From: an uncultured Gammaproteobacteria bacterium
GTDB lineage: Bacteria; Patescibacteriota; Patescibacteriia; Magasanikbacterales; UBA922
Direction: 5' to 3'
Length of the DNA: 64,000 nucleotides
NCBI GenBank assembly: GCA_964597575.1
Contig: CAZQXB010000002.1
Span: forward strand, 5,624-69,623
The translations under genes and the position numbers were made by a program. Positions 4,001 to 48,360 of this stretch are shown one piece after another. The notes beneath the pieces are model-generated. The model saw only the letters and a program-made list of their open reading frames with translations. It did no database searches and was not told the origin of the DNA. Numbering within the stretch: position 1 is the first letter of the stretch; each line of letters starts with the position of its first letter.

Positions 4001-4102
4001 GTTATCCACAGTTTGGGTCAAATACTTGACAAAATGCCAAAAATAGTGTCTACTATAGGATAGTTCTCGTAGTTCTTGACAACGTGTGAGGAAGAAATCC
4101 AC
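1010..4102 (-). CDS. large polytopic membrane protein (~8-9 TM in N-terminal 470 aa) with ~550-aa charged coiled-coil C-terminal domain; hypothetical, VirB6/TrbL-like topology possible
   Basis: 1030-aa ORF. N-terminal half has many long hydrophobic segments; C-terminal half is K/E/R/Q-rich with low-complexity coiled-coil character. Start uncertain (alternatives at 4000 or 3913). Stop is 7 nt before the next minus-strand start, so operon-like. Confidence 0.6.
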   Translation of the reverse strand: MDFFLTRCQELRELSYSRHYFWHFVKYLTQTVDNMNTPLSPWARVPDCAILKGLRVIFLVYISMRAYLSITLGRAWQKWKEFLLIGHTKVWVFLILIGAASLVSFSLVHAQFVEGAALAAPYLLPKGIEVAKEAVASAPSLTPEGVANAIITAVSYVFLGISRLFLSLTVFCLDYFLKLAAYNAFIDAPPVVVGWFMVRDLANMFFIVALLVIAFSTMLGFENYAWKKSLVQLIMAAILINFSRLILGLFIDVSHVITLTFLNAVEGAAGGNLINMLQLDKILQISTNSSAAGNESIHLDLLAGAAAALIFSIISLFTIGAYAFLMLVRVLILWMLIILSPLAFVLSALPQTNSYAKEFWGEFTKYIIVGPMMAFFLWLSFATLGNGDISASLGGPVGNAEELQGVSDLVFEQGNESPSVSINAIARWENLSGFFIAVGFLLLGIERVQKIGLRGSDIAGSIISAGKKVTKGALKAGAIAGTGYLPYKYGKYYGQVGIEKVKQGYYKTLGAKDGELEGRLSEYQATTKAVRDTNIARGSRTSGAGSALSRATVALETEKARGNAEQKKEEYSLRDQQMEREKAALEKKIAEGEKRDRNTFAPGQTKYTDEQRAKFVGEYLEKNGNSMPMLASVYQDALLKRTQGGYEGKTVGQLAAMRDMDRVIQGQDPKEVMLSQDEAHRKAMADYAKFNFQERSDAIRKNIREIDKAKAAGDQKALAAARGNMDSLIHSSLENGEGTNLMNILREEKAIGFKDITESAEDIPQIILGLQGALEKRIDPGVSDDEKMQKLDGAQKDLVRSLGGKAQGSFRNLATSMDRNAELSKSYQYKGQVRRGLDTENDLREAYGFTRAMGIGTNAQNVKYITDAVNNPDKMGTVIQDRSVEYARRDQRISGIERAPTVFTLNVDGRAESVVDGDMQRLIESLGNADASTISGIKKSIMNVLSGGTEMKGGFNGTGFDFANSDIKEIFKKIVADLEVRVSEAVSGGMSKTEVDYRQKALDTFIKSAAGDATLTRDKIEEILDNVERS
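4083..4096. repeat. left arm of perfect 14-bp inverted repeat (CGTGTGAGGAAGAA) flanking GC-rich cassette
   Basis: Exact reverse complement of 4706-4719. The arms bracket the only GC-rich segment in this region. Confidence 0.75.
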
Positions 4103-4143
4103 CCCTTACCCCGCCACAGTGCGGGCTGCAGAGGAGAATCACC

Positions 4144-4656
4144 ATGAATACCCATTTCTTTGCCGCCCTTCTGGCGGCTTGCGTCTCTTTCGCCACCGCC
4201 TGCGGTGGTGACGATCCGACGGATCCGGTCAACAACCCCGACAGCGGGGTCGTGAACCCCACCGTCGACAGTGGCTACCCCCCGCCCTCCTGTGAGGGCG
4301 TGTTCTGCCCCGAGCGGCAGATGTGTCAAATCGGCGTGTGCCAGCCGATCCCATCGAGCGACTGCTCGATGTACAACTGGCTCACGGAGCAGGTGTTCAC
4401 CTGCACCCGAGACAAGACCGCGGTCTTCGTGGTTGAAAACAACATGGAGCCGTCGACGTGCGTTCTCCGACCTCCGACAGAGGAGGAGGATCCGTTGTAC
4501 GACGGACTCGACGCCGAGTTCGGCTTGAACCCCGGGGCATCCCATGGAGTAGCGCGGAACGCGCACGCAACCGTGATCGACATGAACGCGGTCGACAAGA
4601 CGTTTTCCGTGACGCACACTCCGTCCGGAAGCCGGTGGGAGTGCAGAATCCCATGA
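4144..4656 (+). CDS. GC-rich (approx 62% GC) Cys-rich putative lipoprotein, foreign-looking
   Basis: GAGGAG RBS 6 nt before the ATG. Lipoprotein-type signal peptide MNTHFFAALLAACVSFATAC with Cys at the cleavage site. CxxxxCxxxxxCxxGxC EGF-like cysteine pattern. Strong GC3 bias unlike neighbours. The antisense ORF 4018-4722 is a GC artefact. Confidence 0.6.
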   Translation: MNTHFFAALLAACVSFATACGGDDPTDPVNNPDSGVVNPTVDSGYPPPSCEGVFCPERQMCQIGVCQPIPSSDCSMYNWLTEQVFTCTRDKTAVFVVENNMEPSTCVLRPPTEEEDPLYDGLDAEFGLNPGASHGVARNAHATVIDMNAVDKTFSVTHTPSGSRWECRIP

Positions 4657-4705
4657 CGAAGTTCTCGATGAGCTTGTGTCTACAAGTTCTGGATGCTTGC
4701 GAACG

Positions 4706-4719
4706 TTCTTCCTCACACG
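4706..4719. repeat. right arm of perfect 14-bp inverted repeat (TTCTTCCTCACACG)
   Basis: Reverse complement of 4083-4096, 50 nt past the cassette stop codon. Confidence 0.75.
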
Positions 4720-4754
4720 CATCCATAGAGCATCAAAAAAATTTGATCTTCTAC

Positions 4755-26646: not shown

Positions 26647-26835
26647 AACAGTTCCAAATATATTTTACTTTCATCTATTAGACACGGAGCCCCATTTCTT
26701 CACAACTTTTATATAGTATAGCCTATGTGGGTAAGATGTGGAAAAAGAGATATACACAGGGAGTTTACATAGGGGGCATGGCGTGTGATACTACGATTGT
26801 TCGTAAACGAAAAAGAAAAGGGGGGGTGAACGAAC

Positions 26836-27789
26836 ATGCTCACTACAAACAAATTCTCCATGGAAAAAGCGGTGAGCCAATTCGTTCACCGTGGATATAC
26901 TTTTGTTCCTGCCGACCTATGGCGCTTTGTCAGACCACTCAACACAGGATTCACCGAATTCCTACGGTATTCAGAGCAAGAACGCCGTTCTTTTACCTCG
27001 TTCCGGCGGTTTGACCCAAATGACCCTAACCAACCCGATGATGGATATATGGCTCGGCGCGGAGCCGAAACCAAGAGCCGGAATGGCAAGCAGGGCGGGA
27101 AGACCGATATCAAGGATATTATCCACATCCGCGGAGACATCTTTGATATCTACCGCGAAGCTGGTCTAAGACTGAGCCCAAGGGAGACCAGATGGCTCCA
27201 AACCGGCGTCGATGCGCACCAGGCTGTACGCACACTACTCGATCCGTTCTATCTCCAACTCGAGAAGACGCTCACTCAGAAAAACCTCCTGAAAAAAGAG
27301 GGGTTTTACCGAATGATGCGAGACCTCTCGGTGGACCGATCGGTGCTACGCCTCAACCACTACCTGAAGATGCGCGACGACCGTCCGTCGAGTACGCGTT
27401 GGGCTCAGGTGGGTCGCAGTCACACCGACCGATGCTTTCTCACGGTGGCCTGGTTTGAGGGTCTTGCTGACGGTAACCGCGACGAGTCCTCTCGATTGCA
27501 ACGGTATTTCGGAAATTTCATCCTTCCGCAGATACCCAATTTCGTGCCGGATGAAAGCCTGAAGCTCGAGACATCTGACAAGCGCGACCGCGACCACCTC
27601 AAGTGGCGACGAGTTGCTCCACGACCAAGCTACGTTCTCATCTTCGCATCAGCCATGGCCAATCAGGAGTTCGGTATCCCCGCCATGTGGCATCGCATCT
27701 TGTCCGAGAACGGTAAGAGGGTCGCACGTCGGTCGTTCGTCCACTTCGAGCAGATGCCGATCGAATTTTTCGGGTATGGAAACCACTAA
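26836..27789 (+). CDS. GC-rich island gene: putative 2-oxoglutarate/Fe(II)-dependent oxygenase (isopenicillin-N-synthase-like superfamily)
   Basis: AAAGGGGGGG RBS. LRLNHYL (cf. LRLNYYP), HTD followed by LTV (HxD...LT), distal WH and RxS 12 aa later (WHRILSENGKRVARRS). GC ~55% against a ~45% backbone. Candidate extended -10 promoter TTTACA-N17-TGTGATACT upstream. Confidence 0.5.
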   Translation: MLTTNKFSMEKAVSQFVHRGYTFVPADLWRFVRPLNTGFTEFLRYSEQERRSFTSFRRFDPNDPNQPDDGYMARRGAETKSRNGKQGGKTDIKDIIHIRGDIFDIYREAGLRLSPRETRWLQTGVDAHQAVRTLLDPFYLQLEKTLTQKNLLKKEGFYRMMRDLSVDRSVLRLNHYLKMRDDRPSSTRWAQVGRSHTDRCFLTVAWFEGLADGNRDESSRLQRYFGNFILPQIPNFVPDESLKLETSDKRDRDHLKWRRVAPRPSYVLIFASAMANQEFGIPAMWHRILSENGKRVARRSFVHFEQMPIEFFGYGNH

Positions 27790-27860
27790 CCTAAGCCCCC
27801 GACTATGCCACCTTCAGGAGCATGCGTACCGGGGCTTTTTCAATTAAAAAAATTTTCAAA

Positions 27861-27895
27861 CAAAAAATCTGGCCAATTGACCAGATTTTTTGTTC
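27861..27895. terminator. bidirectional terminator between island-2 gene and typA
   Basis: AATCTGG-CCAATTGA-CCAGATT hairpin flanked by an A-run and a T-run. Confidence 0.65.
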
Positions 27896-27902
27896 ATTCT
27901 AT

Positions 27903-29678
27903 TTAGTTCCGTCGACGATCGGTTTCTTTCAAAAACTGTTTGCGTAAACGAATGCTCTTTGGAGTAATTTCCAAGTATTCATCATCAGTCATAATTTCAA
28001 GCCCACGCTCCAGCGTTACTTCGAGCGGTGGGGTCAAAAGAATCGCATCATCCGACCCAGAAGCTCGCATGTTGGTAAGCTGTTTCCCCTTTGTTGGGTT
28101 CACAGCCATTTCTTCACCCTTCGCTGTATTTCCGATAACCATACCCTCGTACACTTCCACATTCGGACCAATATACAAACTGCCACGTTCTTGCAGATTC
28201 CACAGAGAATACCCAAGAGCAACACCTGGAACCATTGAAATCATCGAACCAACAGCACGTTTTTCAATTGTTCCGACATGAGGACGGAAACCAATAACAC
28301 GGCTTGCCATAATACCTTCTCCACGAGTATCCATCACAAACTGTCCGCGATACCCAAGGATACCACGAGTTGGTACCTCAAAAATCATACGAGTATGCCC
28401 GTTCGCTGGCTGCATGTTAATCATCTGACCCTTGCGTTTGGAAAGTTTTTCAATAATGGTTCCCATGAACTCATCCGGAGTATCAATCGTGACTTCTTCA
28501 AACGGTTCAAGCTTCTGACCTGCTTCTTCTTTAATAATAACCTGAGGCTGTGATACTTGAAGTTCAAACCCTTCACGGCGCATGTTTTCAAGCAAAATCG
28601 CGATGTGCATTTCTCCACGGCCATACACGCGAGTGCGGTCGGCTGAAGAAAAATCGATCTTTAACCCCACGTTTACCTCGAGTTCTTTTTCTAAACGTTC
28701 TTTAATTTGGCGGCTTGTGACAAACTTTCCTTCTTTGCCGGCAAATGGAGAGCTGTTCACCATTAAATCCATCGAGATCGTTGGCTCATCAACCGTAATC
28801 GCAGGAAGAGCGGTCTGATCCATGTTTGCACAAATCGTTTCTCCAATATAGATGTCTGGGATACCTGCAACCATCACCAAGTCCCCCGCCTGAGCTTCGG
28901 CTGTTTCTACTTTTTCAAACCCTTTGAAAGAATAAATTTTGGTAATCGTTCCCGTGCGTGATTCGCCGTCGGCTTTCTTTACAACCACTTTATCGCCCTG
29001 GCGCATAATCCCCTCGTAAATACGACCGATCGCCATACGACCCAAATAATTGTCGTACGCCAAATTGAATGGTTGCATGCGGAAAGGAACCGTAATATCA
29101 GCTGGAGCTGGTTCAACAAATTCTAAAATGGTATCAAGAAGTGGATCAAGATTGGTTGACTCATCAGTGAGTTTCTTTTTTGCAATTCCCTGGCGACCAA
29201 TCGCGTAGACGGTATGAAAATTGAGCTGTGCATCGTTCGCTCCCAAATCCATGAAGAGTCCAAGAACTTCATCATGAACACGATCTGGCTCAGCCGCTGG
29301 TTTGTCGATTTTATTAATCACGACAATCGGCTTAAGACCAAGCTCCAATGACTTTTTCAAAACGAATTTCGTTTGAGGCATTGGACCTTCCTGCGCATCA
29401 ACCACAAGAACCACAGAGTCAATAGAGCGAAGCACGCGTTCTACTTCAGAACCAAAGTCCGCGTGCCCGGGAGTATCTACAATGTTAATTTTGGTATCTT
29501 TATAGAAGAGAGCCGTGTTTTTCGCGTAAATCGTAATACCACGCTCTTTTTCAAGCGTGTTTGAGTCCATACTCTGGCCTTCTTCGGTAATCATACCAGT
29601 TTGGCGAAGAAGTGAGTCGGTCAGGGTGGTTTTTCCATGGTCTACATGGGCGATAATTGCGATGTTTCGAATCTGCAT
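27903..29678 (-). CDS. typA: translational GTPase TypA/BipA
   Basis: [31 protein letters not shown]-motifs and a BipA C-terminal domain. Start at the ATG 29676-29678 (MQIRNIAI). Confidence 0.93.
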
Positions 29679-30892: not shown

Positions 30893-30977
30893 ATCATACG
30901 TACATTTTTCTTACTTTGCAATCATTGTGAGGTTTTTTGTAGCAAAACCGACCATCCTATGGCATACTTACCCGTGT

Positions 30978-31544
30978 ATGATGAACAAAAAAATCAAAAT
31001 ACTATTATACGGCGCGAACCTGTGGTACCTCGGTGAAGGCATGTTTGGCCCTCTCTTTGCCGTATTTTCTGAGCGCATCGGGGGAAACATTTTAGATATT
31101 ACCTGGGCATGGGCTGTATATTTAATTGTGAGCGGCATCATGATCATGTACATTGGCCGCCTGTCAGATAAAAAATTTGATAAAACAAACCTCATGATAA
31201 TAGGGTATGCTTTAAATGCTCTCGCCACTCTCGGCTATCTTTTCGTCAGCACCCAAGCTCAATTTTTCCTCATTCAAATTATTTTAGGTGTGGCCGCGGC
31301 ACTCGCTATTCCAACCTGGAATGCGCTGTATGCCAAATATGAAGATAGAGGAGCTGAAGGAGGTGAGTGGGGGCTTGCGACAGGAGAAGCAAAAATTTTA
31401 ACTGGGGTTGCCACCATTCTCGGCGGTCTCATTGTTACGTGGTTTTCATTCACCACCCTCTTTTTTATCATGGGACTTATTCAAGTAACTGCCTGCGTCT
31501 ACCAGGCACAAATCCTCCGTCTAGAGAAAAAAAAGAGTTTATGA
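30978..31544 (+). CDS. six-TM MFS-like half-transporter membrane protein
   Basis: About 189 aa with 6 hydrophobic helices and MFS-like loop motifs. Stop overlaps the next start (ATGA). Confidence 0.45.
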   Translation: MMNKKIKILLYGANLWYLGEGMFGPLFAVFSERIGGNILDITWAWAVYLIVSGIMIMYIGRLSDKKFDKTNLMIIGYALNALATLGYLFVSTQAQFFLIQIILGVAAALAIPTWNALYAKYEDRGAEGGEWGLATGEAKILTGVATILGGLIVTWFSFTTLFFIMGLIQVTACVYQAQILRLEKKKSL

Positions 31545-42987: not shown

Positions 42988-43122
42988 GGCTCTTGACAAC
43001 AGAGCCAAAATGGAGTATATTTTCTGGTTGACTGCCATAGGAAAAATGCCTGGGCAGCGGCTTACCTTGGCAATTCGCCTCGGTAATTACCCCCTTCATC
43101 CGAAGGGACAAGGACACGACAA

Positions 43123-43956
43123 GTGAGCAAGCAGAAGAGCGGTTCGATGGTTCCCGGCAAGATGACCCTGGCCGAGGCGAAGCAGTGGCGCCCGGACCCA
43201 GCCAACAAGCCGACCCGCGTCATCCCGGAGCGCCTGCAGACCAAGGGGCGCATGAACGCGGTCGCCCGCTACGAGCAGGTCTTCGCCCGGCGCAAGGGCG
43301 TCGGTGGCACGAAGGATCAGATCATGGCGGGCATGAAGAACATCCGCCGTAAGAACGAGACGGTGTACGCCTGCCGGCAGGCGTACACCGCCCTGCTCGA
43401 CTGCGGGTACATCCGTGAGATCGAACTGACCGACAAGAAGGACATGGTGTTCGTCATCTTCCTCGTGGCGCCGGCCGTGCCCGAGAAGAAGACCGCGACG
43501 AAGACGACCGGGGTCAAGAAGGTCGAAGGAACCATCAAGGTCGACCGCAGCAAGATCACGGATCTCCAGCCGGTCGAGACGCGTGGGAGCGACCGCACCG
43601 AGGAGGAGCTGCTCACGCAGAGGATGGCCGAGCTCGACGCCGAGGAAGGTGCGCTCGAGGCCAACCTCCTCAACGTGCGCGACGAGAAGAAGGCCACCCA
43701 GACCAGGCTCACAGAACTTCTGGCCGCCGCGGTCGATCAGAAGGCGAGGGACTTGATCCCGAACGTCACCCACCTGGGCGAGCTGGCGTTCAGCGAGCTG
43801 GCCTTCGCGATCGAGGCCGAGAAGTTGCGCCGTCGAGGCCGTGACAGCACGGACAGCACCGACGAGAACGATGGCGCTGGAGCGACCGCCCCGGCCATGA
43901 TGGCCACTCCCGGTCTGAGCGGCACCAGTTCCGCGACCCAGATGGCCACCGCCTAG
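43123..43956 (+). CDS. GC-rich island gene: hypothetical protein with central coiled-coil and acidic Ser/Thr-rich C-terminus
   Basis: GC ~65% with extreme GC3 bias. GTG start per the ORF track, with alternative ATGs at 43147 and 43162. No recognisable catalytic motif. The antisense ORF 43096-43965 is a GC artefact. Confidence 0.55.
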   Translation: MSKQKSGSMVPGKMTLAEAKQWRPDPANKPTRVIPERLQTKGRMNAVARYEQVFARRKGVGGTKDQIMAGMKNIRRKNETVYACRQAYTALLDCGYIREIELTDKKDMVFVIFLVAPAVPEKKTATKTTGVKKVEGTIKVDRSKITDLQPVETRGSDRTEEELLTQRMAELDAEEGALEANLLNVRDEKKATQTRLTELLAAAVDQKARDLIPNVTHLGELAFSELAFAIEAEKLRRRGRDSTDSTDENDGAGATAPAMMATPGLSGTSSATQMATA

Positions 43957-43996
43957 CCACACCACTCACGTGACGTAGCAAGGCAAGGAGAAGATA

Positions 43997-47831: not shown

Positions 47832-48230
47832 CTACATGTGGTGGACGAGCTTGACCCAGCCAACAACCGGCTCTGGTTTCGCCTCCCACTCATAACGGGA
47901 ACGGTCGCACAGGTTTCCGGTCGGCAGGCGGCAAAGCTTAGTCTCGCGGACCATGACAATCCAGCCCCGCAATAAGGTGGCACACGCCTCCACAGACGCG
48001 TCGACATGTGATATGCCGGTGTAGAACTCGAGGGTGGCTTCTCCAGCGCGAGCGTGAAACTCGCAGGAGATGAGCACTCCGTCGGCGTCTCGACTGGCGA
48101 TGATGTAGACCACTTCAGCCGGATACGACTCAGCATTCACGAAACATCCCCGCTCTCGAGTAATGACATCGATCGGGTAGATGATGAAAGCCACGAACAC
48201 GAGGAACTTGAGCCAGCTCTTGTTTTCCAT
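47832..48230 (-). CDS. GC-rich island gene: small membrane-anchored hypothetical protein (approx 131 aa)
   Basis: GGGAGAGG RBS 8 nt before the MENKSW ATG. N-terminal TM helix (WLKFLVFVAFIIYPI) then a ~100-aa Cys-containing domain. GC ~57%. Start placed by counting from the ORF end; the local sequence is ambiguous by ~2 nt. Confidence 0.5.
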   Translation of the reverse strand: MENKSWLKFLVFVAFIIYPIDVITRERGCFVNAESYPAEVVYIIASRDADGVLISCEFHARAGEATLEFYTGISHVDASVEACATLLRGWIVMVRETKLCRLPTGNLCDRSRYEWEAKPEPVVGWVKLVHHM

Positions 48231-48360
48231 TGTTTTTACCTCTCCCTGTGAACAATCTCTCATGGCAGTAGAAGCAAGGCACATGACCCTGAACCACTAC
48301 CGCCACGAAAGACTGTTCTTGCCTAATGAAAGCTAAAATAAAGCTCTATATAGACACATG

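Follow-up and report, generated by a model that had tools for sequence, protein, structure and literature searches.

We analysed a 64-kb window (the whole stretch of DNA under study, 64,000 nucleotides of contig CAZQXB010000002.1), in which the plus-strand open reading frame (ORF) 26836-27789 lies in a housekeeping neighbourhood with the local gene order yidC, nusA, yraN, methyltransferase, 82-aa membrane protein, ORF 26836-27789, bipA/typA and rlmN. The bipA/typA gene (27903-29678) is located on the minus strand, convergent with this ORF, and genes of the PFOR, flavodoxin and thioredoxin type were found nearby. The ORF is open throughout, and its product of 317 aa is very probably a soluble cytoplasmic non-haem Fe(II)/2-oxoglutarate (2OG) oxygenase of the IPNS/DAOCS-like class (PcbC-type, PF03171 superfamily), with the mechanism and organisation described below. 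The protein stands outside every characterised functional family: new is a divergent, insert-bearing member or subfamily, whereas the Fe(II)/2OG oxygenase superfamily and its IPNS class are already known. The following features were assigned to the coding sequence:

26836..27789, plus strand: coding sequence of a divergent IPNS-class Fe(II)/2OG oxygenase, 317 aa (homology, profile, predicted fold)
26836..27330, plus strand: N-terminal alpha/beta region, residues 1-165, with the motifs P-D68-D-G70-Y and D91-x-K93-x3-H97
27346..27366, plus strand: LRLNHYL, residues 171-177, with R172 and Y176 as predicted contacts of the 2OG C1- and C5-carboxylate, respectively
27421..27432, plus strand: H196-T-D198-R199, two predicted iron ligands and a family-specific Arg (alignment, strand end)
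27508..27603, plus strand: clade-specific insertion, about residues 225-256, with a helix at 240-252 (alignment, hhalign, model)
27691..27693, plus strand: H286, predicted distal iron ligand (invariant in 14/14 sequences; opens the predicted strand 286-291)
27727..27735, plus strand: R298-R-S300, the RxS motif and predicted 2OG C5-carboxylate site (Arg invariant; opens the predicted strand 298-305)

A preliminary description of this DNA had placed a 317-aa ORF with the motif set of a 2OG-Fe(II) oxygenase at 26836-27789, and both were borne out by reading the sequence. On the opposite strand the longest ORF has at most 84 aa. LRLNHYL is present, but it covers residues 171-177 and not 171-176 as given there. 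Likewise, HTD (196-198) and LTV were found, with LTV at 202-204 instead of in a range reaching to 205. H286, the R298-R299-S300 motif starting 12 residues further on and the 88 positions from D198 to H286 agree with the description; from H196 to H286 the distance is 90 positions.

Word-indexed homologue searches gave almost nothing beyond the query sequences. With an exhaustive phmmer search over 1.84 billion cluster representatives, 14 matches were obtained, the window protein itself and 13 distant relatives. Identity to the window protein was 36% over the full length for P0002 and 45-46% for P0003 and P0005, the two halves of one frameshifted gene; the ten further relatives (247-299 aa) showed 29-36% across the matched stretches. 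PF03171 was matched at E <= 0.01 by seven of the 14 family members, and three of them, P0011 (34.7 bits), P0004 (28.9 bits) and P0010 (25.7 bits), exceeded its gathering score (cut-off 23). The window protein itself stayed below the PF03171 gathering threshold, so that its class membership rests on transitive and profile evidence. A HMMER check against PF03171, PF14226 and PF02668, proposed in the preliminary description, gave no match for the window protein even at E <= 10, and PF14226 (DIOX_N) was matched by no family member. The sub-threshold score is a failure of model sensitivity and reflects no missing structural feature. AAA_28, the sole Pfam line for the window protein (E = 0.14), was dismissed as noise.

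The 14-sequence family profile matched 3oox (4.1e-14), 3on7 (4.3e-14) and thymine dioxygenase (T7H; 1.7e-10) in the PDB. Weaker matches were JOX (6lsv), GA2ox3, DAOCS, AdaV, ANS, EFE (E about 0.01) and ACC oxidase (ACCO; E = 0.04-0.4). TauD, PhyH, JmjC, AlkB and P4H were not among the 60 listed of the 66 PDB profile matches. As candidate classes TauD/TfdA (PF02668), PhyH, JmjC, AlkB and P4H were rejected, without a Pfam match and absent from the 50 best fold matches. Comparison of the insert-bearing clade (three sequences) with the ten shorter relatives by hhalign gave a probability of 99.9% and E = 7.5e-32 over 235 columns. Thus, the assignment as 2OG-Fe(II) oxygenase, first made from motifs, is supported by transitive PF03171 homology, the family-profile match, ligand correspondence, hhalign and the AlphaFold2/Foldseek results given below. 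The guess of a divergent family holds as well; membership needs intermediate sequences.

The family is rare and patchy. For ten of the 15 family proteins the 90%-identity clusters were looked up, and all ten have a single member. No relative was detected in scans of genome contigs with the window protein, of metagenome contigs with alignment A2 and then with P0002, or of viral contigs. A literature search on 2OG oxygenases in Patescibacteria returned nothing relevant.

AlphaFold2 with the 14-sequence alignment gave a model with a predicted local distance difference test score (pLDDT) of 85.6, a predicted TM-score (pTM) of 0.88 and 168 residues at pLDDT >= 90. Eight core strands were predicted (170-176, 189-196, 202-210, 219-224, 257-259, 266-271, 286-291 and 298-305). 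HxD lies at the end of the predicted strand 189-196, and H286 and R298 each open a strand; these positions, together with homology, suggest that H196, D198 and H286 converge on one metal site. In the Foldseek search against the PDB, the top 50 matches were all IPNS-class Fe/2OG oxygenases with a probability of 1.00, including EFE (6e-11), 3on7, rice His1/HSL1, DAO, ANS, GA2ox3, IPNS, T6ODM, 3oox and AdaV. The jelly-roll core of a double-stranded beta-helix, for which an AlphaFold/Foldseek check had been recommended, is therefore supported as a prediction by the eight strands and the 50 matches. Among viral models the best matches were 'isopenicillin N synthase-like' proteins of giant viruses, and AlkB- and P4H-like viral models scored at least five orders of magnitude worse than these. 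In the N-terminal region the alignment of the family profile with 3on7 starts at position 8; the pattern GY...D-x-KE-f-H is also present in 3oox.

The long spacing between HxD and the distal His, remarked on in the preliminary description, is real, but it is caused by a clade-specific insertion between core strands and not by a different architecture. The insertion of about 32 residues lies between a 'GLQV'-like strand (SRLQRY, 219-224) and the core strand 257-259 and is limited to the window protein, P0002 and P0003. The spacing between the two His is 88-90 in these three proteins and 52-73 in the ten shorter relatives. The mean pLDDT of the inserted block is 75-91. Identical in the three orthologues are D216, S219-R-L, R223-Y, G226, P231, K243, E245-T, R250-D, D253 and W257. 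This identity of many insertion residues indicates that the insertion is a selected structural feature. Most plausibly, with its helix, it would form a lid or an extra wall of the substrate pocket.

In the family alignment, H196, D198, F270, H286 and R298 are invariant in 14/14 sequences. R172, Y176, T203 and F304 are invariant in all 13 members covering them, and D68, G70, D91, K93 and H97 in every member covering them. The third residue of RxS is Ser in eight, Val in four and Ala in one of the 13 covering members. For T7H, seven residues binding the metal or 2OG were established by crystallography and mutagenesis (PMC4787775): His214, Asp216 and His271 are the metal ligands, Arg190 binds the 2OG C1-carboxylate and the substrate, and Tyr194, Arg286 and Ser288 bind the 2OG C5-carboxylate. 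With the family-profile alignments renumbered according to the T7H paper, the correspondences (window/T7H) were R172/Arg190, Y176/Tyr194, H196/His214, D198/Asp216, H286/His271, R298/Arg286 and S300/Ser288. LRLNHYL aligns with ILRLLHY of T7H, and equivalents of the HxD...H triad were also aligned in 3oox, 3on7 and JOX.

Of the 13 genuine sequences, 12 have Arg at position 199 and one has Lys; the Gln shown for P0005 stems from an out-of-frame tail. The corresponding residue in T7H, Tyr217, covers the substrate and forms a hydrogen bond to it (PMC4787775). An Arg at this position suggests an anionic or strongly polar substrate, most likely a small metabolite of this kind.

From the corresponding residues the following mechanism can be proposed. 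H196, D198 and H286 would form the 2-His-1-carboxylate facial triad holding Fe(II). 2OG would chelate the iron; R298, S300 and Y176 would hold its C5-carboxylate, and R172 would hold the C1-carboxylate. O2 would then drive the oxidative decarboxylation of 2OG to succinate and CO2 with formation of an Fe(IV)=O species, which would hydroxylate or otherwise oxidise the bound substrate. The oxygenase is most likely catalytically competent. It may have an accessory instead of a core role and be of conditional use, in the presence of O2. Its organisation as an independent transcription unit, its fast evolution and its inheritance at a single locus within a narrow lineage of Patescibacteria fit such an accessory enzyme.

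The two closest relatives occupy exactly the same slot, convergent with bipA. They are the locus L002, from a JGI metagenome, and L003/L004/L005, which represent three runs of one study. Orthologues at the same slot in two related genomes argue against a recent insertion. The preliminary description had called the gene part of an island. The compositional anomaly is real, but confined to one gene, and a recent insertion is contradicted by the syntenic orthologues. The gene has a GC content of 0.54 and a GC content at third codon positions (GC3) of 0.625, compared with 0.46 for the window and a mean ORF GC3 of 0.426 (standard deviation 0.069; 52 long ORFs). Its GC3 ranks among the top three of these 52 ORFs, and the immediate neighbours have 0.37-0.44. 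For the orthologues, GC3 is 0.44 in L002 and 0.59-0.67 in L003. Other family genes are GC-richer than their own contigs, by 5-9 points in three of four cases and by one point in L011.

Apart from these results on the oxygenase gene, it was observed that the 64-kb window contains four small GC-rich single-gene anomalies, the oxygenase included, amid AT-richer housekeeping genes. The GC-richest stretch (43096-43965, GC 0.654), situated between rpsB and a DsbA-like gene, contains long ORFs in both orientations; the plus-strand ORF 43123-43956 (277 aa) is protein-like and the minus-strand ORF (289 aa) is G/L/R-rich. No significant Pfam or PHROG match was found for the ORFs of this stretch, only a sub-threshold one to DUF2249 (E = 0.007). 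GC3-rich ORFan stretches were also seen at 47832-48284 (minus strand, GC3 0.67) and at 4018-4722 (minus strand)/4144-4656 (plus strand), with a GC3 of 0.55, for which neither Pfam nor PHROG gave a match.

The oxygenase gene is its own transcription unit with promoter, strong Shine-Dalgarno sequence and terminator. The features around the coding sequence are:

26764..26792, plus strand: promoter-like site with -35 TTTACA, a 17-nt spacer and an extended -10 TGtGATACT (consensus scan)
26820..26829, plus strand: Shine-Dalgarno sequence GGGGGGGTGA, 6 nt 5' of ATG 26836 (read from the sequence)
26825..26890, plus strand: hairpin pairing the Shine-Dalgarno sequence and start codon with codons 13-18 (19-nt inverted repeat)
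27793..27840, plus strand: gene-specific intrinsic terminator, a GC-rich hairpin followed by a U run (-18.9 kcal/mol, z = -2.9)
27859..27894, no strand assigned: perfect palindromic hairpin with flanking A/T runs, a bidirectional terminator at the bipA junction (kept in L003 and L002)

Public gene callers start at the internal ATG 26860 (Met9), giving a protein of 309 aa (P0001). The start at 26836 is preferred because of the G-rich Shine-Dalgarno sequence 6 nt upstream; L003 has AGGAGGTGA at the matching position. Both promoter hexamers and the TG are kept in L003 despite the highly diverged coding sequence, and between window and L003 the intergenic promoter blocks are more conserved than the oxygenase coding sequence. 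The hairpin of the start region (-26.7 kcal/mol, z = -2.7), whose equivalent in L003 is not significant (z = -0.4), may limit, regulate or damp translation. At the position of the gene-specific terminator, L003 has a hairpin of other sequence with a U run (z = -6.2). No RNA gene was detected in the GC-rich stretch with Rfam (gathering and E-value modes) or with tRNA/tmRNA scans; sub-threshold matches of the RNA scan fall on the terminator palindrome only. As a separate observation, a stretch of some 45 intergenic nt (ATAGTATAGCcTATGTGG...GTGGAAAAAGAGATATACACAGG; window 26711-26760) is near-identical in L003 (about 545-590) despite saturated synonymous divergence. It overlaps a minus-strand promoter-like site (26744-26715) of the divergent membrane-protein, methyltransferase and yraN genes.

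For the orthologous loci the following identities and rates of nonsynonymous (dN) and synonymous (dS) substitution were obtained:

BipA: identity 93-96%, dN 0.03-0.05, dS about 1.04
RlmN: identity 92%, dN 0.066, dS 1.14
Methyltransferase: identity 75%
82-aa membrane protein: identity 67%, dN 0.29, dS saturated (nominal 3.5)
Oxygenase: identity 34-40%, dN 0.73, dS saturated

The protein change of the oxygenase is about 20-25 times that of BipA. The gene is old in the lineage, sits at one locus and evolves fast. In L003, one extra nucleotide in a run of nine A (A9; L003:969-977), identical in L004 and L005, breaks the orthologue in two. The two halves overlap (P0005, 138 aa; P0003, 177 aa), and removal of one A restores a reading frame matching P0002. 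Possible explanations of this frameshift are a pseudogene, phase-variable switching, rescue by transcriptional slippage or a shared assembly error.

The best matches of BipA (70-81%) were found in metagenome-assembled genomes titled Magasanikbacteria, Paceibacter(ota), Falkowbacteria, Moranbacteria and Patescibacteria group, which speaks for a Patescibacteria origin. It was also seen that many of the genomes with the closest BipA (L012, L014, L017, L018 and others) are titled 'uncultured Gammaproteobacteria bacterium' (TPA), and these labels look unreliable beside the Magasanikbacteria, Paceibacterota and Patescibacteria titles given to loci of equal similarity. A hidden Markov model of the family was run over 80 species-representative Patescibacteria bipA loci (BipA 70-81%), and 0/80 carry the gene within 6 kb. 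The MFS-like and O-methyltransferase neighbours gave no tblastn match in L002-L005 and are therefore not usable as rate baselines. The MFS-like ORF 30927-31544, downstream of rlmN, has no match in L003, where an unrelated 196-aa gene was observed (L003:4800-5390); this slot adds a second variable position next to bipA-rlmN, a pair that is itself conserved.

Several points weigh against an active 2OG oxygenase. No match to the window protein was detected in Pfam, NCBIfam, PHROG or the PDB sequences even at E <= 10. The single-sequence AlphaFold2 model (pLDDT 34) was unusable, and the good model was built on 14 sequences, three of them with the insertion. Similarity to solved enzymes is moderate by TM-score (0.50-0.60), with sequence identities of 10-17%. 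The dN of 0.73 against a flanking dS of about 1.04 gives a ratio of about 0.7, which is compatible with weak selection but is an overestimate because dS is near saturation; the frameshifted orthologue is compatible with weak selection, too. PFOR and flavodoxin suggest an O2-sensitive fermentative metabolism, which leaves the source of O2 and 2OG unaccounted for. Furthermore, RxS and the Tyr are also found in IPNS and ACC oxidase, neither of which uses 2OG; for this reason the dependence on 2OG, as judged from the motifs, is only likely.

Going beyond the assignment as oxygenase, one can think of the insert-bearing clade and its sparse relatives as a Patescibacteria-associated, rapidly diversifying O2-dependent family acting on a scavenged or host-derived anionic metabolite, in which lid and HxD-R define a new substrate class. 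The substrate could, for instance, be a nucleobase, nucleotide or amino-acid derivative, as in T7H or AdaV. If so, O2-dependent salvage, detoxification or host-interaction chemistry would take place in an otherwise fermentative episymbiont, and the dN of about 0.7 of the neighbouring dS, the shifting GC3 and on/off switching at A9 would be signs of an arms race or niche switching and not of decay. We regard this extension as unlikely.

The same rates could also be those of a decaying or relaxed relic, acquired by the ancestor of a small lineage of the Candidate Phyla Radiation (CPR) and drifting to loss with little or no activity. The orthologue identity of 34-40% compared with 93-96% for BipA and 92% for RlmN, the dN of 0.73 relative to the flanking dS of about 1.04, the split orthologue in L003/L004/L005, the atypical composition and the singleton family clusters (10/10 looked up) point in this direction. 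However, the ORF is intact through 317 codons, and the seven cofactor residues and many insertion residues are kept in the three orthologues, where neutral drift over such a divergence would have erased them. Promoter, Shine-Dalgarno sequence and terminator are retained as well. With a saturated dS the rate ratio is too high, and the A9 frameshift is possibly slippage-rescued or an error common to one population. A relic is quite improbable on this evidence.

Compared with the preferred reading as a 2OG oxygenase, the same fold and iron site could belong to a 2OG-independent oxidase of the IPNS or ACC oxidase type, using O2 (plus ascorbate or the substrate) as co-reductant, with RxS and Tyr binding a substrate carboxylate. 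Both enzymes are among the profile or fold matches and are established to have equivalent Arg/Ser motifs, Ser300 is replaced by Val or Ala in 5/13 family members, and no obvious 2OG-producing pathway was seen within the 64-kb window. The tricarboxylic acid cycle is often absent in CPR bacteria. Nevertheless, the 2OG contacts of T7H (Arg190, Tyr194, Arg286, Ser288 and the triad context) are all kept in the window protein, and the best sequence matches (3oox, 3on7, T7H, JOX and GA2ox) are of the 2OG type. ACCO matched far more weakly (E = 0.04-0.4) and IPNS by fold only. Thus, independence from 2OG appears very improbable.

The neighbourhood was considered with regard to function, too. An enzyme that hydroxylates part of the translation machinery (ribosomal protein, translation GTPase, rRNA or tRNA) and not a small molecule would fit a gene that is convergent with bipA/typA and adjoins rlmN, nusA and yidC, an arrangement kept in L002 and L003. 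At other family loci the neighbours are unrelated housekeeping genes: adk with an rlmH-like gene; recA with folD; spoU, fpg and holA; pheS, cca and dut; and hemerythrin with an LPG-synthase-like gene. Of these, the rlmH-like gene, spoU, cca, pheS, recA, fpg and dut count in favour of this reading. Six further family loci have no neighbour gene in common and no conserved partner was found, so that the synteny reflects close relatedness only, and small genomes consist mostly of housekeeping genes. The window protein is very basic (isoelectric point, pI, 9.95), but this value tracks its Arg-rich, GC-rich composition, and the relatives have a pI of 7.8 (P0002) or 5.6-6.7 (other full-length relatives). 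Since they do not share the charge, nucleic-acid binding as a reading of the basic pI was rejected. In addition, the gene has its own promoter and terminator. To our knowledge, the known bacterial hydroxylases of translation factors and ribosomes belong to the PHD/P4H and JmjC classes and not to the IPNS class. All in all, an action on the translation machinery is highly improbable. A hemerythrin-domain gene was noticed two genes upstream of P0015/P0013 (L092:6369-6818, L093:3183-3632), in one lineage only; an O2-related neighbourhood is possible there.

GC-rich DNA in an AT-richer genome gives long accidental ORFs, but a spurious ORF or non-coding element, open by chance and without a direct database family match, is already refuted to near certainty by the fourteen homologues with conserved catalytic residues, the 4e-14 profile match, the confident fold and the lack of an Rfam match or a competing opposite-strand ORF.

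Of mild interest in the reading as an IPNS-class 2OG oxygenase are the presence of an O2/2OG enzyme in a CPR genome that looks fermentative, its fast divergence while the locus stays fixed, and its atypical GC content. If active, an enzyme requiring O2 and 2OG in a small-genome, apparently fermentative CPR bacterium would bear on how such organisms cope with or use oxygen. An uncharacterised subfamily below Pfam detection, with PDDGY, HxDR and the putative lid insertion, is added to a superfamily valued for C-H activation. Reading of motifs caught a true superfamily member which standard HMM libraries had missed. The chemistry is expected to be conventional, and the finding opens no long-standing question.

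Compared with known systems, 3on7 (SO_2589, Shewanella oneidensis) and 3oox (CC_0200, Caulobacter crescentus) are the best sequence-profile matches and also top fold matches. Both are annotated as 'putative 2OG-Fe(II) oxygenase / iron-ascorbate oxidoreductase family' and, like the window gene, are bacterial, single-domain and without an assigned substrate. 3on7 aligns over nearly the full length, with the N-terminal GY...D-x-KE-f-H, LRLLHY, HxD, the distal H and RxS. In contrast to the window protein, to which they show about 14-15% identity, they have neither PDDGY nor HxDR nor the 32-residue insertion, and they pass the Pfam thresholds.

T7H of Neurospora crassa (PDB 5c3o-5c3s) is the closest biochemically characterised relative by profile (E = 1.7e-10). 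Its HTD tripeptide is identical and all seven metal/2OG residues correspond. Phe292 aligns with the family-invariant F304, and Phe is present there in 3oox and 3on7, too. Only the C-terminal half aligns, however; the N-terminal half including the base-recognising Asn87 and Glu122 does not, and Tyr217 is replaced by Arg199. Furthermore, T7H is fungal, and its partner in thymidine salvage, iso-orotate decarboxylase, was not seen in the window; nothing points to thymine as the substrate. An orthologue of T7H was therefore rejected, as of the substrate residues Tyr217, Asn87, Glu122, Asn294 and Phe292 only Phe292 is kept.

EFE of Pseudomonas (PDB 5v2x, 5lsq, 6vp4) is the top structural match (Foldseek 6e-11, TM 0.54-0.60). 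Like the window protein, it comes from a bacterium, belongs to the IPNS class and has a similar length, and its double-stranded beta-helix carries inserts. It differs by its low identity (13-16%) and the weak profile match, and nothing points to ethylene formation. In general, the order of N-terminal alpha/beta region, LRxxxYP, HxD, H and RxS appears to be the same as in the PF03171/PF14226 architecture (plant and microbial DOXC-type enzymes, IPNS, DAOCS), in which the distance from HxD to H is about 55 compared with 90 in the window protein.

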